From positions 146,989 through 210,988 of the forward strand of contig CAZQDL010000001.1 in assembly GCA_964592365.1 (NCBI GenBank): a DNA stretch of 64,000 nt. The letters run 5' to 3'. The position numbers and the translations under genes were made by a program. This document shows positions 8,501 through 43,364 of this stretch, piece by piece. The notes beneath the pieces are model-generated. The model was not told where the DNA came from. It did no database searches and saw only the letters and a list, made by a program, of their open reading frames with translations. Origin of the DNA: an uncultured Candidatus Saccharibacteria bacterium (GTDB taxonomy: Bacteria; Patescibacteriota; Minisyncoccia; Phycocordibacterales; UBA1006). The stretch's first letter is position 1, and each line of letters starts with the position of its first letter.

Positions 8501-8530
8501 CAATTACCGTTCCGTGGTACCATAACAAAT

Positions 8531-14999: not shown

Positions 15000-15015
15000 A
15001 TATTGCCAAAGGAAT

Positions 15016-16433: not shown

Positions 16434-16439
16434 ATAACT

Positions 16440-27835: not shown

Positions 27836-27864
27836 AGTATGAAGTATAGCATGGTGATGAAGGT

Positions 27865-27893
27865 CATAAAAAAAGCCGCTAAATAGCGGCTTT
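27865..27893 (-). terminator. rho-independent terminator of the 27879..28403 gene (minus strand)
   Basis: Read on the minus strand: AAAGCCGCT-ATTT-AGCGGCTTT followed by T7; overlaps that gene's stop codon. Confidence 0.65.
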
Positions 27894-28403
27894 GCTGAAT
27901 GTAAATTCATCTTTTAATTTGTTTACTGTCTCTTTGAATTCTTTTAATGATTCAAGAGCTTTGGAAGAATTATTTCCAAAGTCAAACAAGGTGATTTTTC
28001 TAAACAAATCTTTTAGTGCATGTAACACTAGGAGTTGTTCAGGACATCTGAAGCTACAGATTTTGTAGTTTTCTTTTTTGAGAAATTCAGTTTCATAGAA
28101 TACCCCTACTTCAAACATATTTTTCTTGAGATTATTTTTAATTAAATCAATTTCCGAATCTAATTCAAAAATATCATTTCTGATCTTCAAGAGTAATTTG
28201 TTGTTTTCATGAAAGGTACCTTCAATTTTTTTTGATTCCCTTGATCTTCTGTTATACAGTTGATCAATTGAATTAATTTTTCTCAGATACTGATCAAGTA
28301 AGTCGACATCGATTAGCTCGATTAACTTAATTGAATTTTCTTTAATTGTTTCGAACACGTGAGGTGTAAGTTTTTTTGTTGCTTTGGCTGCAGATTTTCT
28401 CAT
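27879..28403 (-). CDS. hypothetical coiled-coil protein (174 aa)
   Basis: Charged, K/E-rich ORF with its own terminator. Confidence 0.5.
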   Translation of the reverse strand: MRKSAAKATKKLTPHVFETIKENSIKLIELIDVDLLDQYLRKINSIDQLYNRRSRESKKIEGTFHENNKLLLKIRNDIFELDSEIDLIKNNLKKNMFEVGVFYETEFLKKENYKICSFRCPEQLLVLHALKDLFRKITLFDFGNNSSKALESLKEFKETVNKLKDEFTFSKAAI

Positions 28404-28479
28404 AAGTTATTTAGTTTTGGAAATTTCACTATACTATACATTTTATCATTATGTAAAGTTCCTAAAGTACTCTTGGTGG

Positions 28480-29898
28480 ATGAAATACTATATTACAAGT
28501 TACCTATTAGGTATTGTTACCCATTCTTTGTGGTTTGATATTGACTACACAAAGGTGATAGCCGTTGTATTTTTTCTTGTATTGGTATGTTCATTATTTT
28601 CTTTCAAAAGTATCTTAAGATGTGTTCTTTGTGCTTTGTTTTTTCTCTTTGGAATATATTTATTCCATTTAAAACTTCCAGATACTTTGAGTTTAGCTGA
28701 TGTTGTAGATACGAAGGTACAGATTCAAGGAAAAGTTGTTTCTGAGTATATAGATCAAGTAAATTTCAAGCAGTTTGTTGTTGATATTGGAGATAGCGAA
28801 AGGATACTTGTGAGGACAAACAGTTTAGCTTACGTTGAATATGGTGACACTCTTTTGTTATCAGGAAAGTTAATGCTTCCAGAATCTTTTGAAACAGATT
28901 CAGACAGGATATTTAATTACCCAATGTATCTTCAGAAGGATAACATTTTTTATCTTCTTTCTTATACAAGTATTCTTGATATTCAAACCAAAGAACTTTC
29001 ATTGAAAGATAGGTTTATACGAAGGTTGTATGAGAATAAGGAATTGTTGATTGAAAGGGCAAATATGAGATTACCTCAACCCCATGCGGGCCTATTAGCT
29101 GGTATTTTGTATGGCAAAAAGGGAAGTATGAATGCTGAGATTGATGAGCAGTTTAGAGCTGTTGGTCTAACGCATATTGTTGTTTTGTCAGGATATAATG
29201 TTAGCTTGGTAATACAACTATTTTTGATTGTATTAGGTTTTTTACCAATACGATTAAGATCAACATTAGCTTTTTTAGGTATTATTACCTTTGCTTTACT
29301 TGTAGGGGCAGGACCAACCGTGGTAAGAGCATCTATCATGGCAAGTCTCTTAGTGCTTTCAGGATTAGTGCATCGTGAATATGATGTCATAAGAGCTCTT
29401 ATCTTTGCTGGAGTTATTATGGTGTCACTAAATCCATATATTCTACTATTCGATATTTCTTTTCAATTATCTTTCTTGGCAACTTTTAGTCTCATCTATG
29501 TATCTCCGTTAATTGAAAGATATTTTCAAATTGTTCCAAATATTCTTGAGTTTCGTTCATCTTTAGTTGCTACTATTTCAGCACAAATCTTTGTCCTTCC
29601 TTTAATTTTTTATCAAATAGGAGAATTCTCGGTAATCTCAATTGTAGTTAATACCATTGTTTTATTTGCGGTTCCTTTTGCGATGCTTTTCGGAGCAATA
29701 TCTTCAATCCTTTCTCCTGGTTTCATTTTGGAAATATGTATATTTATCACATTTGTATTTCTTGAATATATTGTGAAATTAGTTTCATATTTTTCTCGAT
29801 ATCCACTGGTACATATTCCACCATTTCATATTTCAGTATTGATCCTAATATATCTTATCCTGTTTTTTGTTTTGTATGTGAAATCAGATAAGGTATGA
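28480..29898 (+). CDS. comEC: ComEC/Rec2 competence protein, membrane (DUF4131 + Competence) portion (ORF track start 28384 from TTG)
   Basis: LSGYNVSLV...LLVGAGPTVVRASIMASLLVL competence-domain motif and many TM helices. The ATG at 28480 has a GGTGGA Shine-Dalgarno. Confidence 0.7.
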   Translation: MKYYITSYLLGIVTHSLWFDIDYTKVIAVVFFLVLVCSLFSFKSILRCVLCALFFLFGIYLFHLKLPDTLSLADVVDTKVQIQGKVVSEYIDQVNFKQFVVDIGDSERILVRTNSLAYVEYGDTLLLSGKLMLPESFETDSDRIFNYPMYLQKDNIFYLLSYTSILDIQTKELSLKDRFIRRLYENKELLIERANMRLPQPHAGLLAGILYGKKGSMNAEIDEQFRAVGLTHIVVLSGYNVSLVIQLFLIVLGFLPIRLRSTLAFLGIITFALLVGAGPTVVRASIMASLLVLSGLVHREYDVIRALIFAGVIMVSLNPYILLFDISFQLSFLATFSLIYVSPLIERYFQIVPNILEFRSSLVATISAQIFVLPLIFYQIGEFSVISIVVNTIVLFAVPFAMLFGAISSILSPGFILEICIFITFVFLEYIVKLVSYFSRYPLVHIPPFHISVLILIYLILFFVLYVKSDKV

Positions 29899-29905
29899 TG
29901 TTTTC

Positions 29906-30481
29906 ATGAATTCAAAGAAGATATTGGTATTTGCTGGTCCTTCGGGGGTTGGAAAATCAACCCTCTGTTCTATGGTCCAAGAAACATATCCAGAAAATTT
30001 TTCTTTTGCTGTATCTGCGACCACTCGACCAAAAAGGGGTTTGGAAGTAGATGGAATAGATTATTATTTCCTTTCAGAAGATGAATTTAAAAAAAACATC
30101 AAAGAAGATGCTTTCATTGAATGGGAAGAAGTATATGCTGGAAGATATTATGGAACACTGAAATCAGAAATTACGAGAATCAGTGAACTTGGAAAAGTTA
30201 CCTTACTTGATATTGATGTGTTAGGTGCATTGAATATCAAGAGGAAATATGGAGATGAGGCTCACATTGTTTTCGTAAAACCAGAATCATTATCGGTTCT
30301 TAGACAACGTCTTGAAGATAGAGGAAGTGATAGTGAAGATGATATTGCTGTACGTGTAGAGCGTTTTGAAAAAGAACTTTCTTTTGAAAATGAGTTTGAT
30401 TCGGTAATTATTAATTACACAGGGAAATTGAAAGAGGCACAACTGAATGTTATCAATATTGTAGAAGAATATATTGTATAA
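29906..30481 (+). CDS. gmk: guanylate kinase
   Basis: GPSGVGKSTL P-loop, SATTRPKRGLEVDGIDYYFLSEDEF, EWEEVYAGRYYGT. Confidence 0.9.
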   Translation: MNSKKILVFAGPSGVGKSTLCSMVQETYPENFSFAVSATTRPKRGLEVDGIDYYFLSEDEFKKNIKEDAFIEWEEVYAGRYYGTLKSEITRISELGKVTLLDIDVLGALNIKRKYGDEAHIVFVKPESLSVLRQRLEDRGSDSEDDIAVRVERFEKELSFENEFDSVIINYTGKLKEAQLNVINIVEEYIV

Positions 30482-30486
30482 CATAG

Positions 30487-31365
30487 GTGGTGTTTTTATT
30501 TTTCACTCATATTGATATAGATACTCAAAGGGTGAAATACACTAATGAAAAATTTGTATATATTAGCCTCTTTACCTTCATTGCATCAGTTGTCCTTTTA
30601 TCTCATTCCTTTAATAAGCCAGAATTGATTATTGCTTTTCTTGATGTTGGGCAAGGAGATGCCATTTATATCCGTACTCCAAGAGGAAGAACGATGCTTA
30701 TCGATGGAGGGAAGAATAGAGAAGTGTTATATGAAATATCAAAAGTACATCCGTTCTATGACCGAAGTATAGACATTGTCGCATTAAGTCATCCTGATCT
30801 TGATCATATTGGAGGCTTAATACCAGTCATCGAACAATATGATGTTTTGTATGCTATGGATACTTTTTCAGATAAGGAGTCAGAAGAATATTCCTTATTC
30901 AAGGAAATATTGTCTGAACATATTTTCCATCCAGAATCTGGGTATATTATTGTTCTTGAAGACGGAATACATATTGAAGTACTTTGGCCACATTCGGGAA
31001 TTACTAATTTGAGTGATAATGAAGGATCGCTGGTTCTTCGACTTGAGTATCATGATACTAGTGTACTTCTCACTGGAGATATTGGATTTGAAACAGAAAC
31101 ACATCTTCTTGATATGTACGGAAGATCGTTAATGTCAGACATATTAAAAGTTGGACATCATGGATCAGGTTTTTCAACTTCAAAAGATTGGATTCAAAAA
31201 GTAGATCCAGATATATCAGTTCTTTCTTATGGCTGTGAAAATAGATACGGACATCCACATGAAAGAGTACATAATCTAATTCATGAATATGGAGAGGTAT
31301 ATGATACCTGTAAACAGGGAACAGTTATTCTATCCTCTGATGGAAAAAAATGGAAAAGAAAATAA
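30487..31365 (+). CDS. ComEC C-terminal metallo-beta-lactamase domain as a separate, TM-anchored ORF (GTG start in track)
   Basis: VGQGDAIYIRTPRGRTMLIDGG, HPDLDHIGG, KVGHHGS metallo-beta-lactamase motifs. N-terminal TM. Confidence 0.7.
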   Translation: MVFLFFTHIDIDTQRVKYTNEKFVYISLFTFIASVVLLSHSFNKPELIIAFLDVGQGDAIYIRTPRGRTMLIDGGKNREVLYEISKVHPFYDRSIDIVALSHPDLDHIGGLIPVIEQYDVLYAMDTFSDKESEEYSLFKEILSEHIFHPESGYIIVLEDGIHIEVLWPHSGITNLSDNEGSLVLRLEYHDTSVLLTGDIGFETETHLLDMYGRSLMSDILKVGHHGSGFSTSKDWIQKVDPDISVLSYGCENRYGHPHERVHNLIHEYGEVYDTCKQGTVILSSDGKKWKRK

Positions 31366-31384
31366 CCACAAAGTGGTTATTTAA
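31358..31384. terminator. bidirectional terminator between the ComEC beta-lactamase ORF and convergent rpmB
   Basis: A-run, AACCAC-AAA-GTGGTT, T-rich. Confidence 0.5.
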
Positions 31385-31622
31385 TAAGCCCTGCGTTTTT
31401 AAGTGTTTTGTAAGCACCGTTTTTCTTAATGTTCTTGATTGCTTCAGTTGAGATTTTCATAACAAAAGTTTGATCAATTTCAGGAACATAGATTCGTTTC
31501 TTTTGAAGGTTTGGGAATTTTCGTACTTTTCCTGTTGGATTAAACTCAGTAGCTCGGATTCTGTTACTGTATCCTCCCGTTACCTGAGAACCTTTTTTAG
31601 TTATTGGACATATTCGTGACAT
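31377..31622 (-). CDS. rpmB: 50S ribosomal protein L28
   Basis: MSRICPITKKGSQVTGG...NPTGKVRKFPNLQKKRIYVPE matches the L28 pattern. Confidence 0.8.
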   Translation of the reverse strand: MSRICPITKKGSQVTGGYSNRIRATEFNPTGKVRKFPNLQKKRIYVPEIDQTFVMKISTEAIKNIKKNGAYKTLKNAGLIK

Positions 31623-31746
31623 AATATTTTTTCATTTAAATAGGTCTCAAGTGACCTTCTTATAATGCACCGGATGATAACATAGATTATTATGTGTGCA
31701 AGAGCTATGTATTTGAATTTACTTGGTGTTTCATTATACTAGGTAC

Positions 31747-32343
31747 ATGACACTATCAACTCTTATATATATTATCATCCTCCTTATTTCTGTAGTACTT
31801 CATGAGTTAGCCCATGGATATACAGCAGATGCATTAGGGGATCCAACTCCACGTATGGAAGGAAGATTGAGTTTTAATCCTTTGGTTCATTTGGACTGGT
31901 TTGGTTCTGTATTATTACCAGCTTTAATGATTATTACCGGCTTACCTTTTGTATTTGGTTGGGCAAAGCCAGTACCCTTTAATCCATACCGCTTGAGGAA
32001 TCAACGTTGGGGTTCAGCAATGGTCGCAGCTTCAGGACCCTTGGTAAATATTACCCTTGCTGTATTAATGTCTCTTCTTTTATCTATTGTTGATTCTGGA
32101 ACGTTAATCTCTCAAATCCTTCAGTTAGGTATTCTCACCAATGTGGTGCTTGCTGTATTTAACCTTGTTCCTATTCCACCATTAGATGGACATCATATTC
32201 TTTTTGCACTACTACCAGAATCTTTAAATGGGTTTAAACAACAGCTACGTTCAATTAGTTGGCCACTCGTCTTTGTCTTTATTCTCTTTGGATTTCAACT
32301 TATCGAACCCGTAATTAACTATTTCTATCGACTTCTTGTTTAG
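31747..32343 (+). CDS. site-2 protease family zinc metalloprotease (peptidase M50) (ORF track start 31723)
   Basis: HELAHG (HExxH) in a TM helix and NLVPIPPLDG motif. A TATACT -10 lies inside the track's 5' extension, so the start is moved to 31747. Confidence 0.7.
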   Translation: MTLSTLIYIIILLISVVLHELAHGYTADALGDPTPRMEGRLSFNPLVHLDWFGSVLLPALMIITGLPFVFGWAKPVPFNPYRLRNQRWGSAMVAASGPLVNITLAVLMSLLLSIVDSGTLISQILQLGILTNVVLAVFNLVPIPPLDGHHILFALLPESLNGFKQQLRSISWPLVFVFILFGFQLIEPVINYFYRLLV

Positions 32344-32435
32344 GGGTATTGCATTTTTTAGTGCTTTTAGTATAGTCGACCCTATCAAAACCTCCCTGCA
32401 AGAGGTTGTTATATTGCAGACACTTTAACTATCAT

Positions 32436-32849
32436 ATGGCAAAAATTAACCAACTCGTTCGAAAAGGACGCATACAACAAAAAAAGAAACCAAAGGCGGT
32501 TGCACTACGAAGAGGTTTTAACTCTTTGAAGAATCAACCAACGAGATATCCTTCACCATTTAAACGTGGAGTTTGTACAAAGGTTACTACCATGACACCA
32601 AAAAAGCCGAACTCAGCGCTTCGAAAGATTGCCCGAGTACGACTTACTAATGGTATGGAAGTTACTGCATACATCCCAGGAATGGGACACAAACTTCAGG
32701 AACACAGTGTGGTGCTTCTACGAGGAGGTAGAGTAAAGGACTTGATTGGAGTTCGATACACTATCGTTCGAGGAGTACTTGATGCAACCGGAGTAGATGG
32801 ACGAAAGAATTCTCGTTCACGATATGGAGCTAAGAAACCTAAAAAATAA
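32436..32849 (+). CDS. rpsL: 30S ribosomal protein S12 (ORF track start 32406)
   Basis: [12 protein letters not shown]...[10 protein letters not shown]...[14 protein letters not shown]. Confidence 0.95.
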
Positions 32850-32854
32850 TTATT

Positions 32855-33325
32855 ATGCGAAGACCAGTAAAAAACAGAAAAGCACCACAAGCTGAATCAG
32901 TATATGGATCAATTAAGCTTTCTCGATTCATCAATTACGTTATGTTAGATGGAAAGAAAGAAACTGCACGAAAAATCGTGTATGGAGCACTTGATGTCAT
33001 TAAAGCAAAAGAATCTGATCGAGAACCGCTTGAAGTATTTGAAGCCGCATTGAAAAATGCAGGTCCAGTTACCGAAGTACGATCACGAAGAGTAGGAGGA
33101 GCAAACTATCAAGTACCTGTTGAAGTTCGTCCAGAACGACAACAAGCTTTAGCTATGCGATGGATTATCACAGGAGCTCGAAGCAAAAAAGGAGGAGATA
33201 TGAAAGATTTCCTTGCTCAAGAACTTATCTTAGCTGCAAACAATGAAGGAGAAGCAGTAAAGAAGAAAGAAAACGTTCACAAGATGGCAGAAGCAAACAA
33301 AGCCTTTGCTCACTTTGCTTGGTAA
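32855..33325 (+). CDS. rpsG: 30S ribosomal protein S7
   Basis: FINYVMLDGKKETARKIVYGAL...SRRVGGANYQVPVEVRPERQQALAMRWII...KMAEANKAFAHFAW. Confidence 0.95.
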   Translation: MRRPVKNRKAPQAESVYGSIKLSRFINYVMLDGKKETARKIVYGALDVIKAKESDREPLEVFEAALKNAGPVTEVRSRRVGGANYQVPVEVRPERQQALAMRWIITGARSKKGGDMKDFLAQELILAANNEGEAVKKKENVHKMAEANKAFAHFAW

Positions 33326-33356
33326 GAACTCACCTTGGGTGGGTTCTTATTTTTTG
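33324..33356 (+). terminator. rho-independent terminator directly after rpsG (where fusA would normally follow)
   Basis: 11-bp stem AAGAACTCACC-TTG-GGTGGGTTCTT plus T-run. Confidence 0.7.
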
Positions 33357-33387
33357 GTATACTTTAAAGTATATTAGTTAATACAAT

Positions 33388-33663
33388 ATGAACATGACAG
33401 AATCACAAGAATTTTTAACCTATATTATTAAAAACATTGTTAATCATCCTGATGACGTAAGGGTTGACCACAGTATTGATGATATTGGAACTCTCCTAAC
33501 ATTAACCGTGCATCCTGATGATATGGGGCAAGTAATTGGACGTCAGGGAAACACAGCAAGCTCAATTCGATCACTTGTTCGTGTTGTTGGTATGAAGTTA
33601 GGTCAACGAGTGAATGTAAAAATAGTTGAACCACAAAAAGAAGAAGAGCAAGCAGGGGAATAG
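33388..33663 (+). CDS. KH-domain RNA-binding protein (YlqC/UPF0109 family)
   Basis: HPDDMGQVIGRQGNTASSIRSLVRV KH/GXXG-type motif; 91 aa. Confidence 0.75.
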   Translation: MNMTESQEFLTYIIKNIVNHPDDVRVDHSIDDIGTLLTLTVHPDDMGQVIGRQGNTASSIRSLVRVVGMKLGQRVNVKIVEPQKEEEQAGE

Positions 33664-33691
33664 CAATCACTTTTGTGCATTGCTTTTTTTC
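33662..33691 (+). terminator. rho-independent terminator after the KH-protein gene
   Basis: AGCAATCAC-TTTT-GTGcATTGCT plus T7. Confidence 0.55.
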
Positions 33692-33700
33692 TGATATACT
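33692..33700 (+). promoter_or_regulatory. extended -10 promoter (TGaTATACT) 10 nt upstream of the adk ATG
   Basis: cTGATATACTTCCaatcgcATG, the same TGATATACTTCC as upstream of pilin 1. Confidence 0.4.
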
Positions 33701-33709
33701 TCCAATCGC

Positions 33710-34303
33710 ATGGGTGAGCAAACTATAATTTTTATTGGACGTTCTGGTTCTGGAAAGGGAACCCAAATAGAACTACTCAAAGAGTATTTTGCAAAACATA
33801 CTCCTGAATCTTCAGTTTTTCATTTTGAATCTGGGGATCATTTTAGAAATTTCATTAAATCAGATGGTTATACCAGTGAACTAATGAGAAATATCATTGG
33901 TGAAGGAAAACTTGCACCAGACTTTATCACTGGCTGGTTACTTGTAGATGCCTTAGTGAAGAATTTTAAACGTGGACAAACATTAATTCTTGATGGATTT
34001 CCTCGTACACAAACACAGGCACTGACACTTGATTCAGCTATGGAATACTATGATAGAAAAAATATTAAAGTAATTCATATTGATGTTTCAGAGGATGAAG
34101 TACGACGACGTATGGTTTCTCGAGGACGTGCCGATGATGCTGTTGCTGAAGTGGTTGAACGACGAATAACTTGGTACAACGAAAATGTAATTCCTACTAT
34201 TAACTATCTACGCATGAAACCTGCTTATGAGGTTATTGATATTAATGGAGAACAAGATATTAAAGAAATTCAGGAAGAAATTATTCAACGTCTAGGATTA
34301 TAA
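33710..34303 (+). CDS. adk: adenylate kinase (short form)
   Basis: GRSGSGKGTQ P-loop, LILDGFPRT, arginine-rich lid RRMVSRGRADD. Confidence 0.8.
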   Translation: MGEQTIIFIGRSGSGKGTQIELLKEYFAKHTPESSVFHFESGDHFRNFIKSDGYTSELMRNIIGEGKLAPDFITGWLLVDALVKNFKRGQTLILDGFPRTQTQALTLDSAMEYYDRKNIKVIHIDVSEDEVRRRMVSRGRADDAVAEVVERRITWYNENVIPTINYLRMKPAYEVIDINGEQDIKEIQEEIIQRLGL

Positions 34304-34314
34304 TTATCAATACT

Positions 34315-35004
34315 ATGAGAGCATACAAAGAAACAATTGTTATATCAGTAGGTGGTTCACTTTTGGTTCCAGACCGGGTGGATGTTGATTTTATCAGTCG
34401 CTTAAAGGATATGGTTCGTTTCTTTATCAATGATGGATACCAAATTGCTCTTATCATTGGAGGAGGAAAAACTTCACGTAGATATGGTGAAGTTGCCTCT
34501 TCTTTTTCACATATTTCAAATGAAGATTTAGATTGGATTGGGATAAAAAGTATACATTTGAATGCAGAATTGATTAAACGATGTTATGGAGATCTTGATA
34601 TTCATCCAGAGGTTATTTTGAAAAGAGAAGATATTTCAAAAGTTACTGAATCTTTAGTAATTGTAGGGGCTTGGAAACCAGGTCACTCAAGTGATTACAA
34701 CGCAGTTACAATGGCAGAGTCATTCGGAGGAAAAAAGGTTATTAATTTCTCAAATATATCTTATGTCTATGATATGGATCCAGTAAAGTATCCAGATGCA
34801 AAAATTATTGAAACATTAACTTGGGACAAATACTTAACTCTTATCCCAACTAAGTGGGAAGCAAATCTTTCAGCACCTTTTGATCCAGTTGCTTCTCGTA
34901 AAGCACAAGAGCTTGGAATGACCGTTGCTATACTAGGTTCATCATTAGAAAATTTAAAAAACTATCTAGACGGGAATCCTTTTGAAGGAAGTATTATCTC
35001 ATAG
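34315..35004 (+). CDS. pyrH: amino-acid-kinase-fold UMP kinase, archaeal type (putative)
   Basis: [10 protein letters not shown]...[14 protein letters not shown]...[12 protein letters not shown]...YVYDMDP pattern of archaeal-type uridylate kinase. Confidence 0.55.
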
Positions 35005-35013
35005 ATTGTCTTG

Positions 35014-35022
35014 TGATATACT
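35014..35022 (+). promoter_or_regulatory. extended -10 promoter (TGaTATACT) 8 nt upstream of the pilin 1 ATG
   Basis: tgTGATATACTTCCttgtATG. Confidence 0.4.
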
Positions 35023-35029
35023 TCCTTGT

Positions 35030-35494
35030 ATGAAACCAAAAGGATTCACCTTAATTGAATTATTGGTGGTAGTAGCTATTATTGGAATATTGGCAACCAT
35101 AGTACTTGCATCCTTAGGAAGTGCACGGGAAAAGGCACAGGTAGCTCGAGCAAGAGCTGAAATGAGAGAAATATATACCCTCATGGATACTGCTCGCATT
35201 TTTGAAGGTACAACATTAATGGGAGTAACAGGTTCAGGGTGTACTCATTGTAGTAATGCCTGGAATACCTCAATTGATAGGATAGTAACTAAAGCTGATC
35301 CTACCGCTACAGATGGTTCACGATTCTATACTGATGTTTGGGGTAGCCCATATTATCTTGATGAAAACGAAGGTGAAATTACCACAAACCTTTGTAGAGT
35401 AGATGGATTCAGGTCTCGTGGACCTGATAAGGCATTAAGTACCACAGACGATATCTCTTATCCGATACCTTTTTCACTACCACAATGTCTCTAA
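35030..35494 (+). CDS. type IV pilin / pseudopilin-like protein 1 (ORF track start 34982)
   Basis: MKPK|[23 protein letters not shown] class-III prepilin signal; variable Cys-containing C-terminal domain. Confidence 0.8.
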
Positions 35495-36054
35495 CATCAA
35501 AAACAAAAGGATTTACTCTCATTGAACTACTCGTAGTAGTAGCCATCATTGGAATATTGGCAACCGTGGTGTTGGCATCACTTGGAAGTGCATGGGAAAA
35601 GGCGCGAGAGGCAAGAAAGTTAACTGACTTGAATCAAATAAGGAATGCTTTTGAGTTATATTACCTAGATAATGGAAGCTACCCACTTGCAACTACAGGA
35701 GGCTGGTTTGCATATTGTATTGGTAAGAGTTCAAGTGAAACTTGTTGGAATAATGAACTAAATGGAAATGATGCTTTAAATGCTGCTTTAGAAGATTATC
35801 TACCTCTTGATTACTTCGCTTCTTTAAATGGAGCTGATGCTTCAGCCTTCGTGTTACACAGAGGTGGAACGAGTAATAATCTTGGTTGTGCTGGTGCAGT
35901 TAGATTTGGAAATCAAATTGTTTGGATGCCAAAGGATAACGGAACGGTACCAAATAATTCTTGCCCTGGCGAGAGTATTCGTACCGGTTGTGGGTCAGGA
36001 ATATATCAACAGACGGTATATCATAATAATCACTGTGCATTGTTATTAGACTAA
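35485..36054 (+). CDS. type IV pilin / pseudopilin-like protein 2
   Basis: MSLTSKTK|[23 protein letters not shown]; overlaps pilin 1 by 10 nt (translational coupling). Confidence 0.8.
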
Positions 36055-36058
36055 ATAT

Positions 36059-36083
36059 AAAAAACAACCTTGGTTGTTTTTTA
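36059..36083 (+). terminator. rho-independent terminator after pilin 2
   Basis: AAAACAAC-CTTG-GTTGTTTT plus T-run. Confidence 0.6.
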
Positions 36084-36107
36084 TATTTTGCTACTATCTA
36101 AATATCT

Positions 36108-36872
36108 ATGGCCGTTACGATAAAAACAGAAGAACAAATTTCAGCATTACGTGAAGCAGGAAAAATCCATGCACGTATTTTAGATACGTTGGTGAACATG
36201 GTGAAACCTGGAGTTTCTGCAATGGATTTGAATTCTGAAGCAGAACGTTTGGTTCGTGAGGCAGGTGCTGAACCTTCTTTTCTCGGATATCAACCTGATA
36301 GGAGTTATCCTAAATATCCTGCAACACTATGTGTGTCTATTAATGAAGTTATCGTTCATGGAATTCCAACAAGCGATATGATTATCAAAGACGGTGATTT
36401 GGTTTCTGTTGACTTAGGTCTTAAATATAAAGGGGTATTTACTGATAGTGCAAGAACAATTGCTGTGGGGAATGTTTCAAAAGAAGCAAAAGCATTGCTT
36501 CACGATACTATTGAAGCACTTCATCGTGGAATTGAAGCTGCACGACCAGGAAATACTGTAGGGGATATTGGGTATGCAATTCAATCTTTCAATAACAAAA
36601 GATATGGAAATGTAAGAGAGCTTGCAGGTCATGGGGTTGGTTTAGCCGTACATGAAGATCCCTATGTTCCAAATTATGGAAAACCTAAACAGGGAATTGC
36701 ATTAAAACCAGGTATGGTGTTGGCAATTGAACCTATGTTTAATTTAGGTGGTTCTGAAGTTGTCTTTCATGATGATAAGTATACGGTTACTACTCGTGAT
36801 GGTTCTTTGTCTGTTCATGTTGAACATACTATTTTGATCACTCAAGATGGACCTGAAATCCTCACCTTATAG
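36108..36872 (+). CDS. map: methionine aminopeptidase type I
   Basis: Pita-bread fold metal ligands in conserved context (DLVSVDLG..., HGVGLAVHEDP, LAIEPM). Confidence 0.9.
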   Translation: MAVTIKTEEQISALREAGKIHARILDTLVNMVKPGVSAMDLNSEAERLVREAGAEPSFLGYQPDRSYPKYPATLCVSINEVIVHGIPTSDMIIKDGDLVSVDLGLKYKGVFTDSARTIAVGNVSKEAKALLHDTIEALHRGIEAARPGNTVGDIGYAIQSFNNKRYGNVRELAGHGVGLAVHEDPYVPNYGKPKQGIALKPGMVLAIEPMFNLGGSEVVFHDDKYTVTTRDGSLSVHVEHTILITQDGPEILTL

Positions 36873-36876
36873 TTTA

Positions 36877-36885
36877 TGATATACT
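36877..36885 (+). promoter_or_regulatory. extended -10 promoter (TGaTATACT) 9 nt upstream of the pilin 3 ATG
   Basis: taTGATATACTTatctcatATG; begins 5 nt after the map stop codon. Confidence 0.4.
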
Positions 36886-36893
36886 TATCTCAT

Positions 36894-37499
36894 ATGAAAA
36901 CCAAAGGATTCACTTTAATTGAATTACTGGTAGTAGTAGCTATTATCGGAATATTGGCAACGGTGGTGTTAGCCTCACTTGGTTCAGCTCGAAGTAGAGC
37001 TCGTGATGCAAAAAGGATTGCAGATATGACTAATATACGAACCGCTCTTGAACTTTATTTTCTTGATAATAATAGTTATCCAAGTACTGGTTCATTAAAT
37101 ACAGTATATATGGATACCACTTGTCTAGGTCCAGCAGCAACTTCACCAGACATAAAAAATTCAAATTGGATACCCAACTTAGTTTCAGGTGGGTATATGG
37201 GATCATTGCCACAGAATTTGGGCGAAGCAGGGTACGATTATGCAAGAAGTTTAGCATCTCGTAATACTTGTTATATGTATGCAAGTGATGGAAATTTTTA
37301 TATCTTGTCAGCTTGGGGAGTTGTTGAAAATGGTCCCATAAGCACCACTCATTCGCTATATTCTAGAGTAGGTTTCAGAGAGGGAAATTATGGAGATCAT
37401 CTTTATTACTGTAATCACCCTAATATTGGAAACACCATTAGTGGTGATTATTATCGATATTCATATACCCTGACGAACATAACAACCTGTACGTGGTAG
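36894..37499 (+). CDS. type IV pilin / pseudopilin-like protein 3 (ORF track start 36876)
   Basis: MKTK|[23 protein letters not shown]. The promoter lies inside the track's 5' extension. Confidence 0.8.
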   Translation: MKTKGFTLIELLVVVAIIGILATVVLASLGSARSRARDAKRIADMTNIRTALELYFLDNNSYPSTGSLNTVYMDTTCLGPAATSPDIKNSNWIPNLVSGGYMGSLPQNLGEAGYDYARSLASRNTCYMYASDGNFYILSAWGVVENGPISTTHSLYSRVGFREGNYGDHLYYCNHPNIGNTISGDYYRYSYTLTNITTCTW

Positions 37500-37506
37500 T
37501 GTGTAA

Positions 37507-37540
37507 AATAAAACAAAGCTTAAGCTTTGTTTTATTTTTG
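37507..37540 (+). terminator. rho-independent terminator after pilin 3
   Basis: Perfect 13-bp palindrome TAAAACAAAGCTT|AAGCTTTGTTTTA followed by TTTTT. Confidence 0.7.
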
Positions 37541-37547
37541 TTATACT
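37539..37547 (+). promoter_or_regulatory. extended -10 promoter (TGtTATACT) 7 nt upstream of the pilin 4 ATG (leaderless)
   Basis: tTGTTATACTaacaatATG. Confidence 0.4.
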
Positions 37548-37553
37548 AACAAT

Positions 37554-38060
37554 ATGAAATTAAAAGGATTCACCTTAATTGAACTACTTGTAGTAGTAGC
37601 TATCATTGGAATATTGGCAACCGTGGTGTTAGCATCCTTAGGAAGTGCACGGGAAAAGGCAAAATTCACTAAGCTCGTTGCAAACATTAATCAGCTTGAA
37701 AAAGAATTGCATACTAATAATCCGGGGGTATGGTGGACTGAGCTACCAGGTAATATTATTCCAGCTAGTTCAAATGTTAATGTAACTAAATTTAATTTTG
37801 ATGGATACACCTTTGCATACGATAATGATGCGGATATCAGGCCTAATGCTGATTGTATGGCTAGTGAAGCTGAAATGGTAAGAGGTGTTAGTATTATCGT
37901 ACTTGGACTAACAAGTGCTGATTTTATTACTCTTAATGACTATATTGATCAAGGTGAAAAGAATTATACTACCACCAACAAGAACCTTTGCGGAAAGCTA
38001 TTATGGTACAGCCCTTCAGCTTCAGTAATGTATAGAGTGGCTAATAATTCCTTTGAATAA
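37554..38060 (+). CDS. type IV pilin / pseudopilin-like protein 4 (ORF track start 37527)
   Basis: MKLK|[23 protein letters not shown]. Confidence 0.8.
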
Positions 38061-38084
38061 ACTACTAAAATAGTAGTTTTTTTG
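38058..38084 (+). terminator. rho-independent terminator after pilin 4
   Basis: AACTACTA-AAA-TAGTAGTT plus T7. Confidence 0.65.
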
Positions 38085-38302
38085 TTTGACTAAAAACAAT
38101 TCATAAGTAGTATAAGCACTATCACAACTTGTGTTGTTGTGTTTTTTTATGGAAAACTCATTATTTTCCTGTAAACGACACTTGTTCTTCTGAACACTTG
38201 TCTAGCGCTAGATTATTAATACACAGATGGAGGTAACAGATGCAACACATACCCTTTTTGAGGTAGCCGTCGGTTGCCCTATCGCTTAACTAAAAACAAA
38301 CT

Positions 38303-39499
38303 ATGTCAGAAACTTTCGACAGAAGTAAAACCCATATCAACGTGGGAACTATTGGACACGTTGACCACGGGAAAACTACTCTTACTGCAGCTATTCTTCA
38401 CTCATTGAACTTAGCTGGAAAAAAGGTAAAAATGAAGGACGTATCAGGAATTGACAACGCTCCTGAGGAACGAGAACGAGGAATTACTATCTCAATCTCA
38501 CACAACGAGTATGAATCAGATAGTCGACACTACGCACACATTGATGCGCCAGGTCACGCTGATTACATCAAGAACATGATTACTGGTGCTGCTCAAATGG
38601 ACGGTGCTGTAATCGTAGTTGCAGCTACTGATGGACCTATGCCTCAAACTCGAGAACACATTCTTCTTGCTAAGCAAGTGGGTGTTCCAAACATCATTGT
38701 ATTCATCAACAAAGAAGATATGATGGCAGGAGAAGAGGAAATGATCGATCTTGTAGAAGAAGAAATGCGAGAACTACTTACTAAGTATGATTTCGATGGA
38801 GCAAACGCACCTGTTATCAGAGGATCTGCACTTAAGGCACTTGAATCTGATTCAGTTGATAATCCATGGGTACAAAAGGTTATTTCTTTGGTTGACGCTA
38901 TGGATACCTTCTTCCCAGACCCAATTCGAGAACTAGATAAACCATTCCTAATGCCTGTTGAAGATATTTTCTCAATCGAAGGACGAGGAACAGTTGTTAC
39001 TGGAAAAATCGAACAAGGAAAGGTAAAAGTTGGAGAAACTATTCAAATTGTTGGAATCAAGGATACTGTTTCAACAACAGTTACTGGAGTTGAAATGTTT
39101 AACAAACAACTTCAAGAAGGTCTTGCTGGAGACAACGCTGGAATTCTTCTACGTGGTCTAAAGAAAGATGAAATTACTCGAGGACAAGTGCTTGCAGCAC
39201 CTGGATCAATTACTCCTCATACTGAATTCGAAGCAGAAATTTATGTTTTGAAGAAAGAAGAAGGAGGACGACACACTCCATTCTTTAAAGGTTACAAACC
39301 TCAGTTCTACATCCGTACAACTGACGTAACTGGAGAAATCGAACTTCCAGAAGGAACAGAAATGGTAATGCCTGGAGATACTATTACTCTTAAGGTAAAA
39401 CTACAAGTTCCAGTAGCTATCAACGGAAACATGCGATTTGCAGTTCGTGAAGGAGGACGAACCGTTGGAGCTGGAGTAGTTACTAAGATTGTCGCGTAA
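38303..39499 (+). CDS. tuf: elongation factor Tu
   Basis: [33 protein letters not shown], and the full 398-aa EF-Tu architecture. Confidence 0.95.
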
Positions 39500-39520
39500 G
39501 CGTCCTTAGTATTATTTAGC

Positions 39521-39847
39521 ATGGCAACAAAAGAACAGTCAGGGTCAACCCTGAGAATTCGTGTTCGTGCTTACGAGAGTAAAATCCTCGATACCTCAGT
39601 AAAGCAAATAATGGATACTGCTGCTTCATTTGAAGCAGAAACACGCGGTCCTATTCCATTGCCTACTGAAATTAAAAAGTACACGGTAAACCGTGCTTCA
39701 TTCGTATACAAAGATGCTCGAGAGCAATTTGAAACACGAATCCACAAGCGATTGATTGATATTATCAATCCAACTCCTAAAGTGGTTGAAGCACTTACCA
39801 ACATGAACTTACCATCTGGAGTCGACATCGACGTAAAGATGATCTAA
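39521..39847 (+). CDS. rpsJ: 30S ribosomal protein S10
   Basis: IRVRAYESKILD...RGPIPLPT...RIHKRLIDIINPT. Confidence 0.9.
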   Translation: MATKEQSGSTLRIRVRAYESKILDTSVKQIMDTAASFEAETRGPIPLPTEIKKYTVNRASFVYKDAREQFETRIHKRLIDIINPTPKVVEALTNMNLPSGVDIDVKMI

Positions 39848-39964
39848 GAAGAGGATATTCCTCACATTATTCAAAACTAACTCACGTTATGACGTTGGTT
39901 TTGGCGACATGATGATCCTTGTAATCATTATGTCGTTGAAACAAAACACATAACCACTGAGACT

Positions 39965-40618
39965 ATGGGTGTACCTTCGAAAGAAGCACTGCATCCTGAT
40001 ATCACTATGAAATATATTTTAGGTACAAAAGAGCAGATGACACAAATCTTCAATGAAGATGGAATGGTTATTCCTGCAACAATTATTTCTGTTCCAAATG
40101 CAACTATTACGCAAGTAAAGACATCTGAAAAAGATGGATATACTGCAGTACAAATTGCTTCAGGAGAAAGAAAAGAAAAGAATATTAACAAAGCTCAACT
40201 AGGACACTTTGCTGAATTGGGAAATTTCCGACATGTTTGTGAATTTCGTATGAAAGACGTACAGGGTCTAGAAAAAGGAGCTACTATTACGGTAGATACT
40301 TTTGAAGTAGGAGATACCGTTACCGTAAGTGGAGTATCAAAAGGAAAGGGGTTCCAAGGAGTTGTAAAAAGACATAATTTCCAAGGAGCACCTACTTCAC
40401 ACGGACACCGACATGATACTCGACGTCCAGGTTCTATCGGAGCTGGAGGTCCACAACGAGTTTTCAAAGGAACTCGAATGGCAGGACGAATGGGTTCTGA
40501 TCGAGTAAGTGTAAAGAATTTGACCGTGGTAGCAGTCGATACCGCATCACAAAAATTACTCGTTAAAGGTGCAGTTCCAGGAAAACGTGGAACTATGCTT
40601 GAAATTGTTTCACAATAA
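39965..40618 (+). CDS. rplC: 50S ribosomal protein L3
   Basis: GVSKGKGFQGVVKRHNFQGAPTSHGHRH... L3 signature. Confidence 0.9.
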   Translation: MGVPSKEALHPDITMKYILGTKEQMTQIFNEDGMVIPATIISVPNATITQVKTSEKDGYTAVQIASGERKEKNINKAQLGHFAELGNFRHVCEFRMKDVQGLEKGATITVDTFEVGDTVTVSGVSKGKGFQGVVKRHNFQGAPTSHGHRHDTRRPGSIGAGGPQRVFKGTRMAGRMGSDRVSVKNLTVVAVDTASQKLLVKGAVPGKRGTMLEIVSQ

Positions 40619-40622
40619 TCGT

Positions 40623-41291
40623 ATGAAAACAGATATTTACAATCACACAGGTGACGTGAGTGGATCAATTGAACTTCCAACTGATGTTTTTGGTCTTGAA
40701 TGGAATGCTGACTTGGTTCACCAAGTAGTAGTTGGTATGCAATCAAATGCACGAGCTAACACAGCACATACAAAGGATAGATCAGAAGTAAGTGGAGGAG
40801 GGCGTAAACCTTGGCGACAAAAAGGAACTGGACAAGCACGACACGGATCAAAGAGATCTCCAATTTGGAGAGGTGGAGGTATTACTTTTGGACCACGAGC
40901 TGAGCGAAACTACGATAAGAAAATTAACAAAAAAATGAGAGCTAAGGCTTTACTTGTTGCTTTGTCACAAAAGCTACGAGATGGACACGTTCTCTTTGTT
41001 GATGATCTTTCAACTGAAGCTGGAAAAACATCAGCAATGAAAAACATTTTTGAATCATTTGCAAAAGTTAAAGGTTTTGAAACCTTAAACACAAAGAAGC
41101 ATAACAATGTATTTCTTACTGCTGTTGAACCAAAAGATGAGCTAAAGAGATCAGTTAAAAACTTACACCATGTGAGTTTAGCAGATGTTACTAACCTCAA
41201 CGTAGTTGATGTGTTAAATCATCGTTACCTACTTATTAGCAATCCAAAAGAAAGTGTCGACTTCTTATCATCAAAGTTAACAACTAAGTAA
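40623..41291 (+). CDS. rplD: 50S ribosomal protein L4 (ORF track start 40569)
   Basis: GGGRKPWRQKGTGQARHGSKRSPIWRGGG L4 motif; the start was set at MKTDIY immediately after the rplC stop. Confidence 0.9.
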   Translation: MKTDIYNHTGDVSGSIELPTDVFGLEWNADLVHQVVVGMQSNARANTAHTKDRSEVSGGGRKPWRQKGTGQARHGSKRSPIWRGGGITFGPRAERNYDKKINKKMRAKALLVALSQKLRDGHVLFVDDLSTEAGKTSAMKNIFESFAKVKGFETLNTKKHNNVFLTAVEPKDELKRSVKNLHHVSLADVTNLNVVDVLNHRYLLISNPKESVDFLSSKLTTK

Positions 41292-41292
41292 T

Positions 41293-41622
41293 ATGGCACT
41301 ATTCAAAAAAGAAGCAGAAACTGAAGTAAAAGAAATTATTTCATCAGAAGATTTTTCTTGGGTACTAAAAAAACCAAGAGTGACTGAAAAGTCAGCATAT
41401 ATTTCTTCTGACAATGCATACACCTTTGATGTATCAGTAGATGCTAACAAGATTCAAATTAAGAAGGCAATTCAAGAGACATACAAGGTAACTCCTCTTA
41501 AGGTAAATGTGATTAATCGAAAAGCGCACAAGGAAACAAAGCGTGGACGAAAGATTCATGTATCTGGTACCAAAAAAGCAATGGTGTATCTAAAGAAAGG
41601 GGACACTATTGAATTGGTATAA
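41293..41622 (+). CDS. rplW: 50S ribosomal protein L23
   Basis: VLKKPRVTEKSA...KIQIKKAIQETYKVTPLKVNVIN. Confidence 0.85.
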   Translation: MALFKKEAETEVKEIISSEDFSWVLKKPRVTEKSAYISSDNAYTFDVSVDANKIQIKKAIQETYKVTPLKVNVINRKAHKETKRGRKIHVSGTKKAMVYLKKGDTIELV

Positions 41623-41674
41623 CACTAATCATTAACTAAAGTTTTCAGTAGCTGATAATTACTGACATGAAGAT

Positions 41675-42517
41675 ATGAAACAATATAAACCAACAACACC
41701 TTCACGAAGAAATATGACAACCTTGTCATACCGTGACATCCTTACCGCAAAAACTCCTTTCAAGGCATTGACCAAGGGAGGAAAGCGATCAGTAGGGCGA
41801 AACAATCAAGGAAAGATTACTACTCGACATAAAGGAGGGGGTAACAAGCGAAAGTATAGAGATATTGACTTCCTATACAGCAAGCATGATATTCCTGCAA
41901 AAATTGAAACAGTAGAATATGATCCAAACCGATCAGCTTTCATTTCATTGGTATGTTACAGCGATGGAGAACGTCGATATGTAGTAATGCCAAAAGGAGT
42001 ACAAGTAGGTGATACTTTCTTGGTATCAGAGAAAGCACCACTTACTCCTGGAAACAGACTTCCACTTCAAAAAATTCCTGTTGGAACTTTTGTATACAAC
42101 ATTGAATTAAAGAAAAATGGAGGAGCGAAATTTGTTCGATCAGCTGGAGCATTTGCTCAGGTAACAGCTCATACTGATACCTTCACAAATATCAAACTTC
42201 CATCTGGAGAAATTCGAAAGGTTCCTAACTCATGTTGGGCATCAATTGGAGAAGTTTCTAACTCTGATTACAAGTTGATTAATAAAGGGAAGGCTGGAAG
42301 ATCTCGATGGTTAGGAATTCGTCCTACTGTTCGAGGTTCAGCTATGAACCCTGTTGATCACCCACACGGAGGAGGAGAAGGAAGACAGGGTATTGGATTA
42401 CGAAGAGGTCCAAAGACTCGTGAAGGAAAACAAGCTTACGGAGTTAAAACACGACGAGCTAAGAAATATTCAAACCAAGCTATCATTACTCGAAGAAAGA
42501 GTAAGAGACAGAAATAA
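41675..42517 (+). CDS. rplB: 50S ribosomal protein L2
   Basis: GRNNQGKITTRHKGGGNKRKYR...DHPHGGGEGR. Confidence 0.95.
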   Translation: MKQYKPTTPSRRNMTTLSYRDILTAKTPFKALTKGGKRSVGRNNQGKITTRHKGGGNKRKYRDIDFLYSKHDIPAKIETVEYDPNRSAFISLVCYSDGERRYVVMPKGVQVGDTFLVSEKAPLTPGNRLPLQKIPVGTFVYNIELKKNGGAKFVRSAGAFAQVTAHTDTFTNIKLPSGEIRKVPNSCWASIGEVSNSDYKLINKGKAGRSRWLGIRPTVRGSAMNPVDHPHGGGEGRQGIGLRRGPKTREGKQAYGVKTRRAKKYSNQAIITRRKSKRQK

Positions 42518-42519
42518 TA

Positions 42520-42550
42520 TAAAAACATCCATGTCATTTGGATGTTTTTA
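42520..42550 (+). terminator. rho-independent terminator immediately after rplB (S10 operon ends here)
   Basis: AAAACATCCA-TGTCATT-TGGATGTTTT plus T. Confidence 0.7.
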
Positions 42551-42566
42551 TATTATAATCTAATTC

Positions 42567-43364
42567 ATGTTTGAATCTTTTATCTTAGGTGCAGTTCAAG
42601 GAATTGCAGAGTGGTTGCCTGTGTCTTCAGAGGCAATGATAGTTTTGGTGAAGAGTAATTTCTTTCCAGATAACGGTGATATTACTAGCTACATACAACT
42701 TGCCATCTTTCTTCATATAGGGACATTACTTGCTGCTTTAGTATATTTTCGTAAGAAAATTTGGAAGTTACTCCAACAATTTTTTTCATATTCATCACAG
42801 ACAAAAGATGTACAGGATTATCTATCATTCATTGTTATTGCAACGTTAGTTTCAGGGATAATTGGATATATACTCCTTGAGGTGGTAAAAAAGTACCAAG
42901 CATTTTTTGAACAGGAATCATTACTTAATGCTATTGTTGCTATTTTCTTATTCATCACAGCACTCCTTTTATATATATCTGAAAATAGAAAGAATAAAGA
43001 AAAGGTGGCTGTTTCTAAATATTCTTCATATATCGTTGGAATATTTCAAGGTTGTTCAGCAATTCCTGGGATTTCTCGTTCTGGTTCAACGATAGCTGCA
43101 ATGGGGTTACTTGGATATGAGAAGGTGTGGGCTCTTGAAATGTCATTCATTCTTTCAATTCCATTGGTATTTTTTGCAAATATTATTTTAAACTATGAGA
43201 TGTTTATGAATATTACTACCAACCACCTTATTGCAATTGCTTCTTCTTTTCTTTTTGGAATCCTTACCATTTCAATTCTCCTAAATGTGGTAAAACGTAT
43301 CAGATTTAGCTACTTTGTTGGATTTTTTGCGTTATTGGTACTTACTTCTTCTTTCTTCATCTAA
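42567..43364 (+). CDS. uppP: undecaprenyl-diphosphatase (BacA/UppP)
   Basis: AVQGIAEWLPVSSEAM and GISRSGSTIAAMGLLG motifs; 8 TM helices. Confidence 0.8.
   Translation: MFESFILGAVQGIAEWLPVSSEAMIVLVKSNFFPDNGDITSYIQLAIFLHIGTLLAALVYFRKKIWKLLQQFFSYSSQTKDVQDYLSFIVIATLVSGIIGYILLEVVKKYQAFFEQESLLNAIVAIFLFITALLLYISENRKNKEKVAVSKYSSYIVGIFQGCSAIPGISRSGSTIAAMGLLGYEKVWALEMSFILSIPLVFFANIILNYEMFMNITTNHLIAIASSFLFGILTISILLNVVKRIRFSYFVGFFALLVLTSSFFI

Follow-up and report, generated by a model that had tools for sequence, protein, structure and literature searches.

Gene order of the ribosomal locus

Why does a ribosomal locus of an uncultured bacterium run from rpsL-rpsG into adk-pyrH-map, from there into tuf-rpsJ-rplC-rplD-rplW-rplB, and then end at uppP? 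No gene order is better conserved in bacteria than that of the str-S10-spc supercluster, on which the syntenic 16-ribosomal-protein marker sets used for uncultivated lineages are based; breaks in it are a known kind of event. The locus in question occupies positions 31377-43364 of a 64,000-nt stretch (hereafter the window) of contig CAZQDL010000001.1 (assembly GCA_964592365.1), labelled as an uncultured Candidatus Saccharibacteria bacterium. Its gene order is regarded here, with a probability of about 0.85, as a genuine, ancient and evolutionarily fixed rearrangement that defines a clade of Paceibacteria.

Genes were identified from the list of open reading frames (ORFs) together with NCBIfam and Pfam scans, which confirmed all genes named in the initial annotation and their order (Table 1). 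The genes rpsL and rpsG, 5 nt apart, form the beginning of a str operon, and in place of fusA between rpsG and tuf there is a strong terminator followed by KH-adk-pyrH and further genes. The head of the S10 operon, rpsJ-rplC-rplD-rplW-rplB, is contiguous and ordered (39521-42517), and beyond rplB a hairpin and uppP stand in place of rpsS-rplV-rpsC-rplP-rpmC-rpsQ. The two genes expected after secY at the end of the spc operon, adk and map, both lie between rpsG and tuf. Annotation scans across the whole window found no fusA, none of the genes rpsS…rplQ and no secY. Further details of the initial annotation also hold, namely the terminators after rpsG and rplB, a tuf leader of about 240 nt (the spacer measures 242 nt) and an archaeal-type pyrH, which scores 145.6 bits against its model, slightly below the curated cutoff of 158.

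A gene order shared by a clade

A protein search with the L2 sequence of the window returned about 60 clusters at 77-89% identity, some of them labelled Candidatus Campbellbacteria or Pacebacteria in the source. At least ten other lineages from marine, lake and groundwater samples, with L2 proteins 78-87% identical to that of the window, share the backbone …rpmB(-)-S2P-rpsL-rpsG-KH-adk-pyrH-[0-2 pilins]-map-tuf-rpsJ-rplC-rplD-rplW-rplB-[0-3 pilins]-uppP-DEAD, the last being a DEAD-box helicase gene that also lies 3' of uppP in the window. They include GCA_041192925.1 (L092), GCA_002698305.1 (L093, the L2 protein of which is also listed from a Tara source), GCA_022763365.1 (L096), JGI 3300000234 (L094), JGI 3300010234 (L105) and seven metagenomic loci retrieved by the leader motif described below (L106, L108-L110, L114, L115 and L117). 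The KH-domain gene sits between rpsG and adk in every clade locus covering that region. In a neighbour-joining tree of six concatenated proteins, ten backbone taxa were monophyletic in 100% of 200 bootstrap replicates, with L095 as the sister to the backbone clade and L097 as the next branch outside. The arrangement is no oddity of one genome or its assembly; it is the norm across the whole clade, an outcome that the initial annotation had itself named as counting against its interpretation.

More distant relatives were obtained by a genome-collection scan with L2, in which the matches listed had 50-69% L2 identity and did not include the close clade; gene order was read by mapping proteins of the window and of locus L013 onto the loci of relatives. 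Most of the distant loci with long enough flanks have the order rpmB(-)-S2P-rpsL-rpsG-fusA-tuf-rpsJ-rplC-rplD-rplW-rplB-rpsS…secY-adk-(pyrH or map). The adjacency of secY and adk is seen in canonical relatives, and in L013 adk-pyrH follow secY. The description of the locus as re-assorted str, spc-tail and S10-head fragments is upheld, the window carrying the derived order. In comparison with the canonical str-S10-spc(-alpha) supercluster (E. coli and B. subtilis type; L013, JBAZSF010000006.1), the window organism has the same gene families and the same order within blocks (rpsL-rpsG; tuf-rpsJ-rplC-rplD-rplW-rplB; rpsS…secY; adk-(pyrH)-map). The left flank rpmB(-)-S2P-rpsL-rpsG is likewise common to canonical relatives and clade members, the S2P gene being kept 5' of rpsL in relatives. 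Unlike the canonical supercluster, the window organism has fusA after secY and not between rpsG and tuf, has adk-pyrH-map between rpsG and tuf and not after secY, ends the S10 operon at rplB with a terminator, carries embedded KH-protein and pilin genes, and has no rpmC found between rplP and rpsQ in its second ribosomal locus.

These comparisons bear on the mechanism first proposed, a recent event specific to this genome in which recombination between pilin direct repeats spliced the fragments together and deleted the intervening genes. It is true that map is flanked by four pilin genes whose 5' ends share 141-nt repeats (67-74% identity), and that pilin paralogs elsewhere are up to 91% identical over about 100 nt. 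Such an event requires the canonical order in close relatives, but this was not seen; lineages from unrelated habitats, some with as little as 78% L2 identity, have this backbone too, relatives are pilin-free at both pyrH|map and map|tuf, and nothing was deleted, fusA and rpsS…secY being present in the second locus. A recent origin in this genome is thus very improbable.

The displaced genes in a second locus

The SecY protein of L095 was used as a query, and inspection of the cluster members led to protein P0390 as the SecY of the window organism. It is found on 23 contigs (NCBI, JGI, Logan and ENA), and the longest of these measures 315,005 bp, a figure that recurs for the L2, EF-Tu, UppP and pilins of the window. 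The corresponding contigs (L100-L103) contain, in their proximal part, rpsS-rplV-rpsC-rplP-rpsQ-rplN-rplX-rplE-[pilin, NUDIX, pilin, DsbB(-), pilin, pilin, pilin], followed by rpsN-rpsH-rplF-rplR-rpsE-rplO-secY-[pilin, cytochrome b5 (cyt-b5)-like]-fusA-[TrwB/TraG-like ATPase]-ndk-RNase J…. The search for fusA and rpsS…secY elsewhere in the organism, which the initial annotation had called for, has therefore located them, and its statement that the intervening genes were removed does not stand: the essential genes are all retained, relocated and not lost. A relative labelled Campbellbacteria (L098) has the same layout of the second locus with fewer pilins (rpsS…secY-pilin-cyt-b5-fusA). When the EF-G of L013 served as query, the 120 matches listed were all at least 89% identical to the query's own clade and did not lead to the fusA of the window organism.

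The canonical slot of rpmC (L29) between rplP and rpsQ is reduced to a spacer of only 16-17 nt (L100 1633-1650; L098 3193-3211), and tblastn with the L29 of L013 gave no credible match in any fetched clade sequence; L013, L015 and L023 have rpmC. Directly 3' of the moved fusA, L100 encodes a 906-aa protein (14609-17329) with weak signatures of a TrwB/TraG-type coupling-protein ATPase (PF10412, PF12696) and with DUF8128 among its precomputed matches; a gene of this kind has the same position in L098.

With rplB and rpsS…secY on separate loci, marker blocks of this clade will be split or partial, and its genomes can be misjudged when binning or chimera checks take contiguity for granted.

Authenticity of the joins

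Each of the rplB-uppP and rpsG-KH joins recurs unchanged in 23 contigs (JGI and ENA samples), and the exact L2 and S7 proteins are likewise found on 23 contigs each. Two contigs, L007 (window 26350-43325) and L002 (33817-52517), are 100% identical to the window, all joins being spanned. The weak point lies in the pilin genes: several contigs end at 35452, 35543 or 35592, or begin at 36932 or 36977, and three contigs change partners inside pilin 1 and pilin 2, L001 and L006 joining tkt-pilinX to pilin2-map and L008 joining pyrH-pilin1 to pilin2'-pfkB. These breaks and partner changes occur because a second, paralogous pilin pair shares an exact 458-nt repeat with pilin 1 and pilin 2 (Table 1). 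The paralogous locus (L104) reads …rpe-rhodanese(-)-tktN-tktC-pilinX-pilin2'-…-pfkB(-)-fba-…-truB-…-fmt(-)-def(-)-hisS(-); its tkt-pilinX-pilin2'-pfkB part is present on five long contigs, and the longest contigs resolve two loci, pyrH-pil1-pil2-map and tkt-pilX-pil2'-pfkB.

The flanks of L001, L006 and L008 match L104 or the window with at most one single-nucleotide polymorphism (SNP). Diverged strains were considered as their source and ruled out, since the flanks differ by 0-1 SNP and all differences lie within the pilin genes. The simplest reading of the three cross-over contigs is an assembly artefact, because the repeat exceeds k = 141. The pyrH-pilin-map join itself is genuine, given the long contigs of the paralogous locus and the conserved pyrH…map synteny in relatives.

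Could the whole adjacency of str, spc-tail and S10-head genes be a chimera assembled at the repeated 5' ends of pilin genes? The shared 458-nt repeat, the recurrent contig ends and the cross-over contigs are what such an error would leave behind, but the rpsG|KH-adk and rplB|uppP joins contain no repeat at all, more than 20 independently assembled contigs show them in identical form, and both pilin loci are resolved by the longest contigs. Moreover, pyrH-map-tuf is pilin-free in L092, L094, L106, L108 and L114 and contains a pilin in L093, L096 and L110, and the conserved synteny in relatives already contradicts a chimera. This explanation, which the initial annotation had itself raised, is not upheld and must be considered extremely improbable.

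A model of the rearrangement

The fixed, clade-wide rearrangement can be described with five blocks: A, rpsL-rpsG; B, fusA; C, tuf…rplB; D, rpsS…secY; and E, adk-pyrH-map. In place of the ancestral order A-B-C-D-E, which other Paceibacteria retain, the clade has the locus of the window, A-KH-E-C followed by uppP (locus 1), and the second locus, D-B (locus 2). The net change is an exchange of places between fusA (B) and adk-pyrH-map (E), together with a break at rplB|rpsS (C|D). In the sister lineage L095 (78% L2 identity), with tuf…rplB-[5-kb ABC-transporter insert]-rpsN-rpsH…secY-fusA and with rnc, not map, 5' of tuf, block C has stayed together with B and the distal portion of D, an order that fits an A-E-C-D-B intermediate. 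The clade offers a clean case of block exchange (fusA versus adk-pyrH-map) within an essential supercluster, with differing states held by L097, L016 and L095. No account of this arrangement, or of pilin genes embedded in ribosomal operons of the Candidate Phyla Radiation (CPR), came to light in a full-text literature search; given the incomplete coverage of such a search, this is weak evidence of novelty.

The junction between rplB and rpsS is a recurrent site of change. Canonical genomes commonly carry inserts at fixed junctions (rplB|rpsS, rpsJ|rplC, rpsG|fusA, fusA|tuf and rplE|rpsN), those at rplB|rpsS measuring 0.7-4.4 kb in many relatives and that at rplE|rpsN being a pilin in L013. In L016, rplB is followed by toxin-antitoxin-like ORFs, an AI-2E permease gene and metG, and in L097 by gyrB, rpsG-fusA-tuf being kept in both. 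L016, L097 and L095 are like the window in being broken at rplB|rpsS; unlike it, none of them has the A-KH-E-C backbone. In two canonical relatives, L017 (13421-13816) and L018 (6535-6927), a DgkA-type kinase gene (PF01219, 2e-31) lies directly 5' of rpsS, at the end of the rplB|rpsS insert; in the window clade, uppP occupies that junction. Some members of the DgkA family act as undecaprenol kinases; if these do, both genes would serve undecaprenyl-phosphate recycling, which may be a coincidence.

Several observations weigh against this reconstruction or narrow it. L097 and L016 break after rplB with fusA in place, and either the fusA/adk exchange or the rplB|rpsS break may have come first; because they show independent breaks at the C|D junction, the order and mechanism of the steps are what we infer from the present arrangements. 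L095 has lost rpsS…rplE between rplB and rpsN. The alternative joins inside pilin1/pilin2 of L001, L006 and L008 mean that some genomes in the population may link the blocks differently. The assignment of locus 2 to the same genome rests on the matching 315,005-bp figure, shared samples and contig counts, the trees are neighbour-joining trees of six proteins, and the transcription units discussed below are predictions from sequence.

Pilin genes and the ribosomal loci

All four pilins of the window score above the TIGR02532 cutoff, carry the GFxxxE cleavage/methylation motif and a hydrophobic helix, and share a 19-residue segment (4/4). No pilD, pilB or pilC was noticed in the window annotation, and these genes were not looked for outside the window. 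Pilin number and position vary between species. With pilins called in relatives by hidden Markov model, the pyrH|map and map|tuf junctions are empty of them in the five pilin-free loci named above, and a pilin at map|tuf was detected in no clade locus other than the window; the rplB|uppP junction, pilin-free in the window, holds pilins in 9/11 clade loci. Because relatives with the same joins have no pilins there, the pilins inside the window joins cannot have made those joins. The four window pilins are variable, species-specific cargo acquired later than the rearrangement, and pilin genes have time and again entered the gaps between operons in the two ribosomal loci.

The suggestion that pilin repeats mediated the rearrangement fails for the pilins at the joins of the window and keeps some room for an ancient role. 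In that version, junction pilins of the ancestor (after rplB, rplE and secY) recombined and blocks were excised and re-inserted, leaving as scars the pilins that now sit at rplB|uppP and secY|fusA. Pilins do recur where this predicts them, at rplB|uppP in most of the clade, at secY|fusA in both loci examined (that of this organism, L100-L103, and that of the Campbellbacteria-labelled relative) and at rplE|rpsN in the clade and in the canonical L013, and the 458-nt repeat illustrates that long identical tracts can persist between pilin paralogs. However, the rpsG|KH junction never has a pilin, L095 has secY-fusA without one, and L097 and L016 break after rplB without one; the coincidence of pilins and breakpoints may reflect nothing more than the fact that gaps between operons are the only places where either is tolerated. 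An ancient pilin-mediated rearrangement is judged quite unlikely.

At least 13 prepilin-type genes are present in ~100 kb of DNA of this organism (L100 3196-7094 and 11323-11820; window 35030-38060; L104 829-1353 and 8001-8992), ten of them inside the two ribosomal protein loci. Every clade member examined has ribosomal loci with at least one pilin, and among canonical relatives only L013 does. The gene pilin1/pilinX occurs in at least four alleles (window 35030-35494; L104 8001-8465; L001 and L006, 3356-3820) that show as many as 27 differences over 261 nt, and the flanking 3-17 kb differ by 0-1 SNP, so that the background is otherwise clonal and the variability is limited to this one pilin. 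Among the fetched sequences, no paralog was found that could have donated the variant stretches of the L001/L006 alleles.

Pilin repeats cause assembly ambiguity and may be recombinogenic. The Neisseria pilE/pilS system, in which multi-copy type IV pilin loci contain recombining paralogs, offers an analogy only. Like it, this organism has many paralogs with conserved 5' ends and variable 3' parts, long identical tracts between loci, and one pilin gene with several divergent alleles on a clonal background. Unlike it, this organism yielded neither silent cassettes nor donor tracts, its copies all look complete, and recombination is putative, as the cross-over contigs may be assembly artefacts. 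The pilins of the ribosomal loci could nevertheless form a recombination-based variation system, with L001, L006 and L008 as real recombinants produced by exchange or inversion between the two repeat-sharing loci; we consider this unlikely, if still worth keeping in view. Were it true, C-terminal domains of pilins would be swapped, the genes linked to the tuf-S10 block would change, and the same process would account for the divergent pilin1 alleles on their otherwise SNP-free background. Whatever their dynamics, pilins have lodged repeatedly in ribosomal operon gaps, with at least ten in the two loci of this organism, a pattern that suggests a coupling of pilins, which are central to an episymbiotic lifestyle, to highly expressed units under growth-rate control.

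Transcription units and the tuf leader

Locus 1 would be read as three or four separate transcription units, as predicted from its terminator- and promoter-like signals: rpsL-rpsG, closed by a strong terminator; a compact KH-adk-pyrH-(pilins)-map-(pilins) operon, probably started from an extended -10 promoter just past the rpsG terminator; a self-contained operon from tuf to rplB, with a promoter and a terminator of its own as well as a 5' hairpin and a structured leader RNA; and uppP. The hairpins after rpsG and rplB are kept in position across the clade with unrelated sequences: a hairpin with a T-run follows rpsG in L093, L094 and L096, differing in sequence, and rplB in L092-L096, and a TGnTATAMT extended -10-like motif lies a few bases 3' of each of both hairpins in relatives. 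From KH to pilin 4, genes overlap or are spaced by 3-54 nt, no convincing terminator was found between them, and promoter-like matches are not enriched (40 versus 45.9 +/- 7.4 in shuffled sequence); the idea that each of these genes has its own promoter or terminator was not borne out. Terminator-like sites are enriched as a class only (14 versus 7.3 +/- 2.1 expected).

Three features 5' of tuf are conserved across the clade and in L095: a promoter-like TTGACn-16/17-TAGTAT, the hairpin CACAACTTGTGTTGTTGTG with a T-run, and a downstream structured element. They are kept in L095 though its upstream gene is rnc, and the leader motifs are absent from all canonical relatives. Helix 1 of the 5' hairpin is paired in 14/14 sequences without covariation; this invariant hairpin could be a 5' stabiliser of the RNA, an attenuator or a DNA operator. 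For the downstream element, RNAalifold predicted 23 pairs from 14 distinct sequences, 11 of them with compensatory double changes; 96.9% of cells are paired, 0/500 shuffles reach any observed measure, and slid registers of the alignment drop to 23-44% paired. A covariance model gave one match per clade locus, always immediately 5' of tuf, with 49 bits for the window and 52-82 bits for other clade loci, including L092 (52 bits) and L105 (58 bits), neither of which was used in building the model. It had no match in the canonical relatives searched (23 of the L012-L045 loci), L097, L098, L100 or L104. In Rfam, only tRNAs reach the gathering score in the window, the best scores in 38040-38320 being 13-20 bits, far below the cutoffs.

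Since its covarying structure is conserved and its place in the 5' untranslated region (UTR) is constant, the element at 38220-38288 is considered a new candidate for a cis-regulatory leader of the tuf-S10-head operon, with a regulatory role that we infer. Ribosomal-protein operons can have such leaders, that of the E. coli S10 operon being bound by L4. As in those leaders, a covarying 5' UTR RNA lies here near the first start codon of an operon encoding S10, L3, L4, L23 and L2; unlike the E. coli S10 leader, the element precedes tuf and not rpsJ, matches no Rfam family, is limited to this clade, and is accompanied by an invariant 5' hairpin. The leader is confined to the lineage in which fusA has ceased to precede tuf, made up of the backbone clade and its sister L095, and it is a candidate autoregulatory element in bacteria with almost no known regulation. 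Together with the pattern of pilins in ribosomal operons, it is the part most worth pursuing. The 8-mer GAUGCAAC in the leader, which also occurs in helix 31 of 16S rRNA, was considered as an rRNA-site mimic and dropped, as roughly 13 shared 8-mers are estimated to arise by chance at these lengths.

Other features of the window

The features of the locus are collected in Table 1; base composition of the window is ~35% G+C, which together with its genes indicates a member of the Patescibacteria/CPR with a small genome.

Table 1. Genes and signals of the ribosomal locus, in window coordinates
Feature	Position	Strand	Evidence or remark
rpmB (L28)	31377-31622	-	TIGR00009 2.1e-09; divergent from the S2P-rpsL-rpsG unit
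S2P/M50 intramembrane metalloprotease-like gene	31723-32343	+	weak NCBIfam matches; PF02163 in identical contigs
rpsL (S12)	32436-32849	+	TIGR00981 2.1e-58
rpsG (S7)	32855-33325	+	TIGR01029 2.1e-57; final gene of the str remnant
Intrinsic terminator	33321-33351	+	14-bp stem and T-run; overlaps the rpsG stop codon
Extended -10-like TGGTATACT	within 33321-33357, after the rpsG terminator	+	
KhpA-type KH-domain RNA-binding protein	33388-33663	+	PF13083 1.4e-21; opens the KH-adk-pyrH-map unit
adk (adenylate kinase)	33710-34303	+	TIGR01351 3.1e-32
pyrH (archaeal-type UMP kinase)	34315-35004	+	TIGR02076 1.6e-42 versus bacterial TIGR02075 3.6e-10
Pilin 1 (prepilin-type N-terminal domain)	35030-35494	+	TIGR02532 9.2e-10
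458-nt exact repeat	35135-35592	+	within 632 nt at 94.5% identity; shared with the paralogous pilin pair of the tkt…pfkB locus (L104)
Pilin 2	35485-36054	+	TIGR02532 2.1e-08
map (type I methionyl aminopeptidase)	36108-36872	+	TIGR00500 1.1e-83
Pilin 3	36876-37499	+	TIGR02532 2.4e-08
Pilin 4	37554-38060	+	TIGR02532 4.7e-08
Promoter-like TTGACT-16-TAGTAT 5' of tuf	38086-38113	+	conserved across the clade (alignment)
Hairpin CACAACTTGTGTTGTTGTG and T-run	38123-38148	+	nearly invariant; predicted 5' end of the tuf transcript
Structured leader element	38220-38288	+	three nested helices around an invariant CAACACA loop, ~15 nt 5' of the tuf ATG
tuf (EF-Tu)	38303-39499	+	TIGR00485 3.5e-200
rpsJ (S10)	39521-39847	+	TIGR01049 5.7e-37
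rplC (L3)	39965-40618	+	TIGR03625 5.3e-73
rplD (L4)	40623-41291	+	TIGR03953 5.3e-60
rplW (L23)	41293-41622	+	NF004363 1.7e-22
rplB (L2)	41675-42517	+	TIGR01171 4.9e-113; end of the shortened S10 block
AT-rich 18-bp hairpin after rplB	42514-42556	+	overlapped by the uppP promoter-like ATGTCA-17-TATAAT
uppP (undecaprenyl-diphosphatase)	42567-43364	+	TIGR00753 1.6e-39; in the usual rpsS slot after rplB

Several genes outside the ribosomal locus have an unusual architecture. The isoleucyl-tRNA synthetase (1171 aa, 8486-12001) contains an inserted histidine-phosphatase/phosphoglycerate-mutase-like domain (ribazole_cobC, 4.4e-24) that spans roughly residues 512-676 and splits the ileS match in two. 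ComEC (28384-31365) is split into an ORF with the N-terminal competence domain (28384-29898) and one with the C-terminal metallo-beta-lactamase (MBL) domain (30487-31365), separated by gmk (29906-30481), and the order ComEC_N-gmk-MBL is also found in identical contigs and in L094. The methionyl-tRNA synthetase core (19601-21058) is without its C-terminal tRNA-binding domain, which is a separate 127-aa gene (52195-52578) 31 kb distant, beside ruvX. By ORF sizes, the region at 51.7-54.2 kb had been a candidate for rpsM-rpsK-rpsD-rpoA; the first two genes proved to be ruvX and a gene for a tRNA-binding domain protein, and the others had no family match, so this candidate was rejected. Finally, a large serine recombinase gene (54377-56194, minus strand) adjoins tRNA-Arg(tct) and tRNA-Val(tac), and the segment 54226-64000, with lower G+C (0.30-0.33), mostly unannotated ORFs and two further tRNAs, may be an integrated element.

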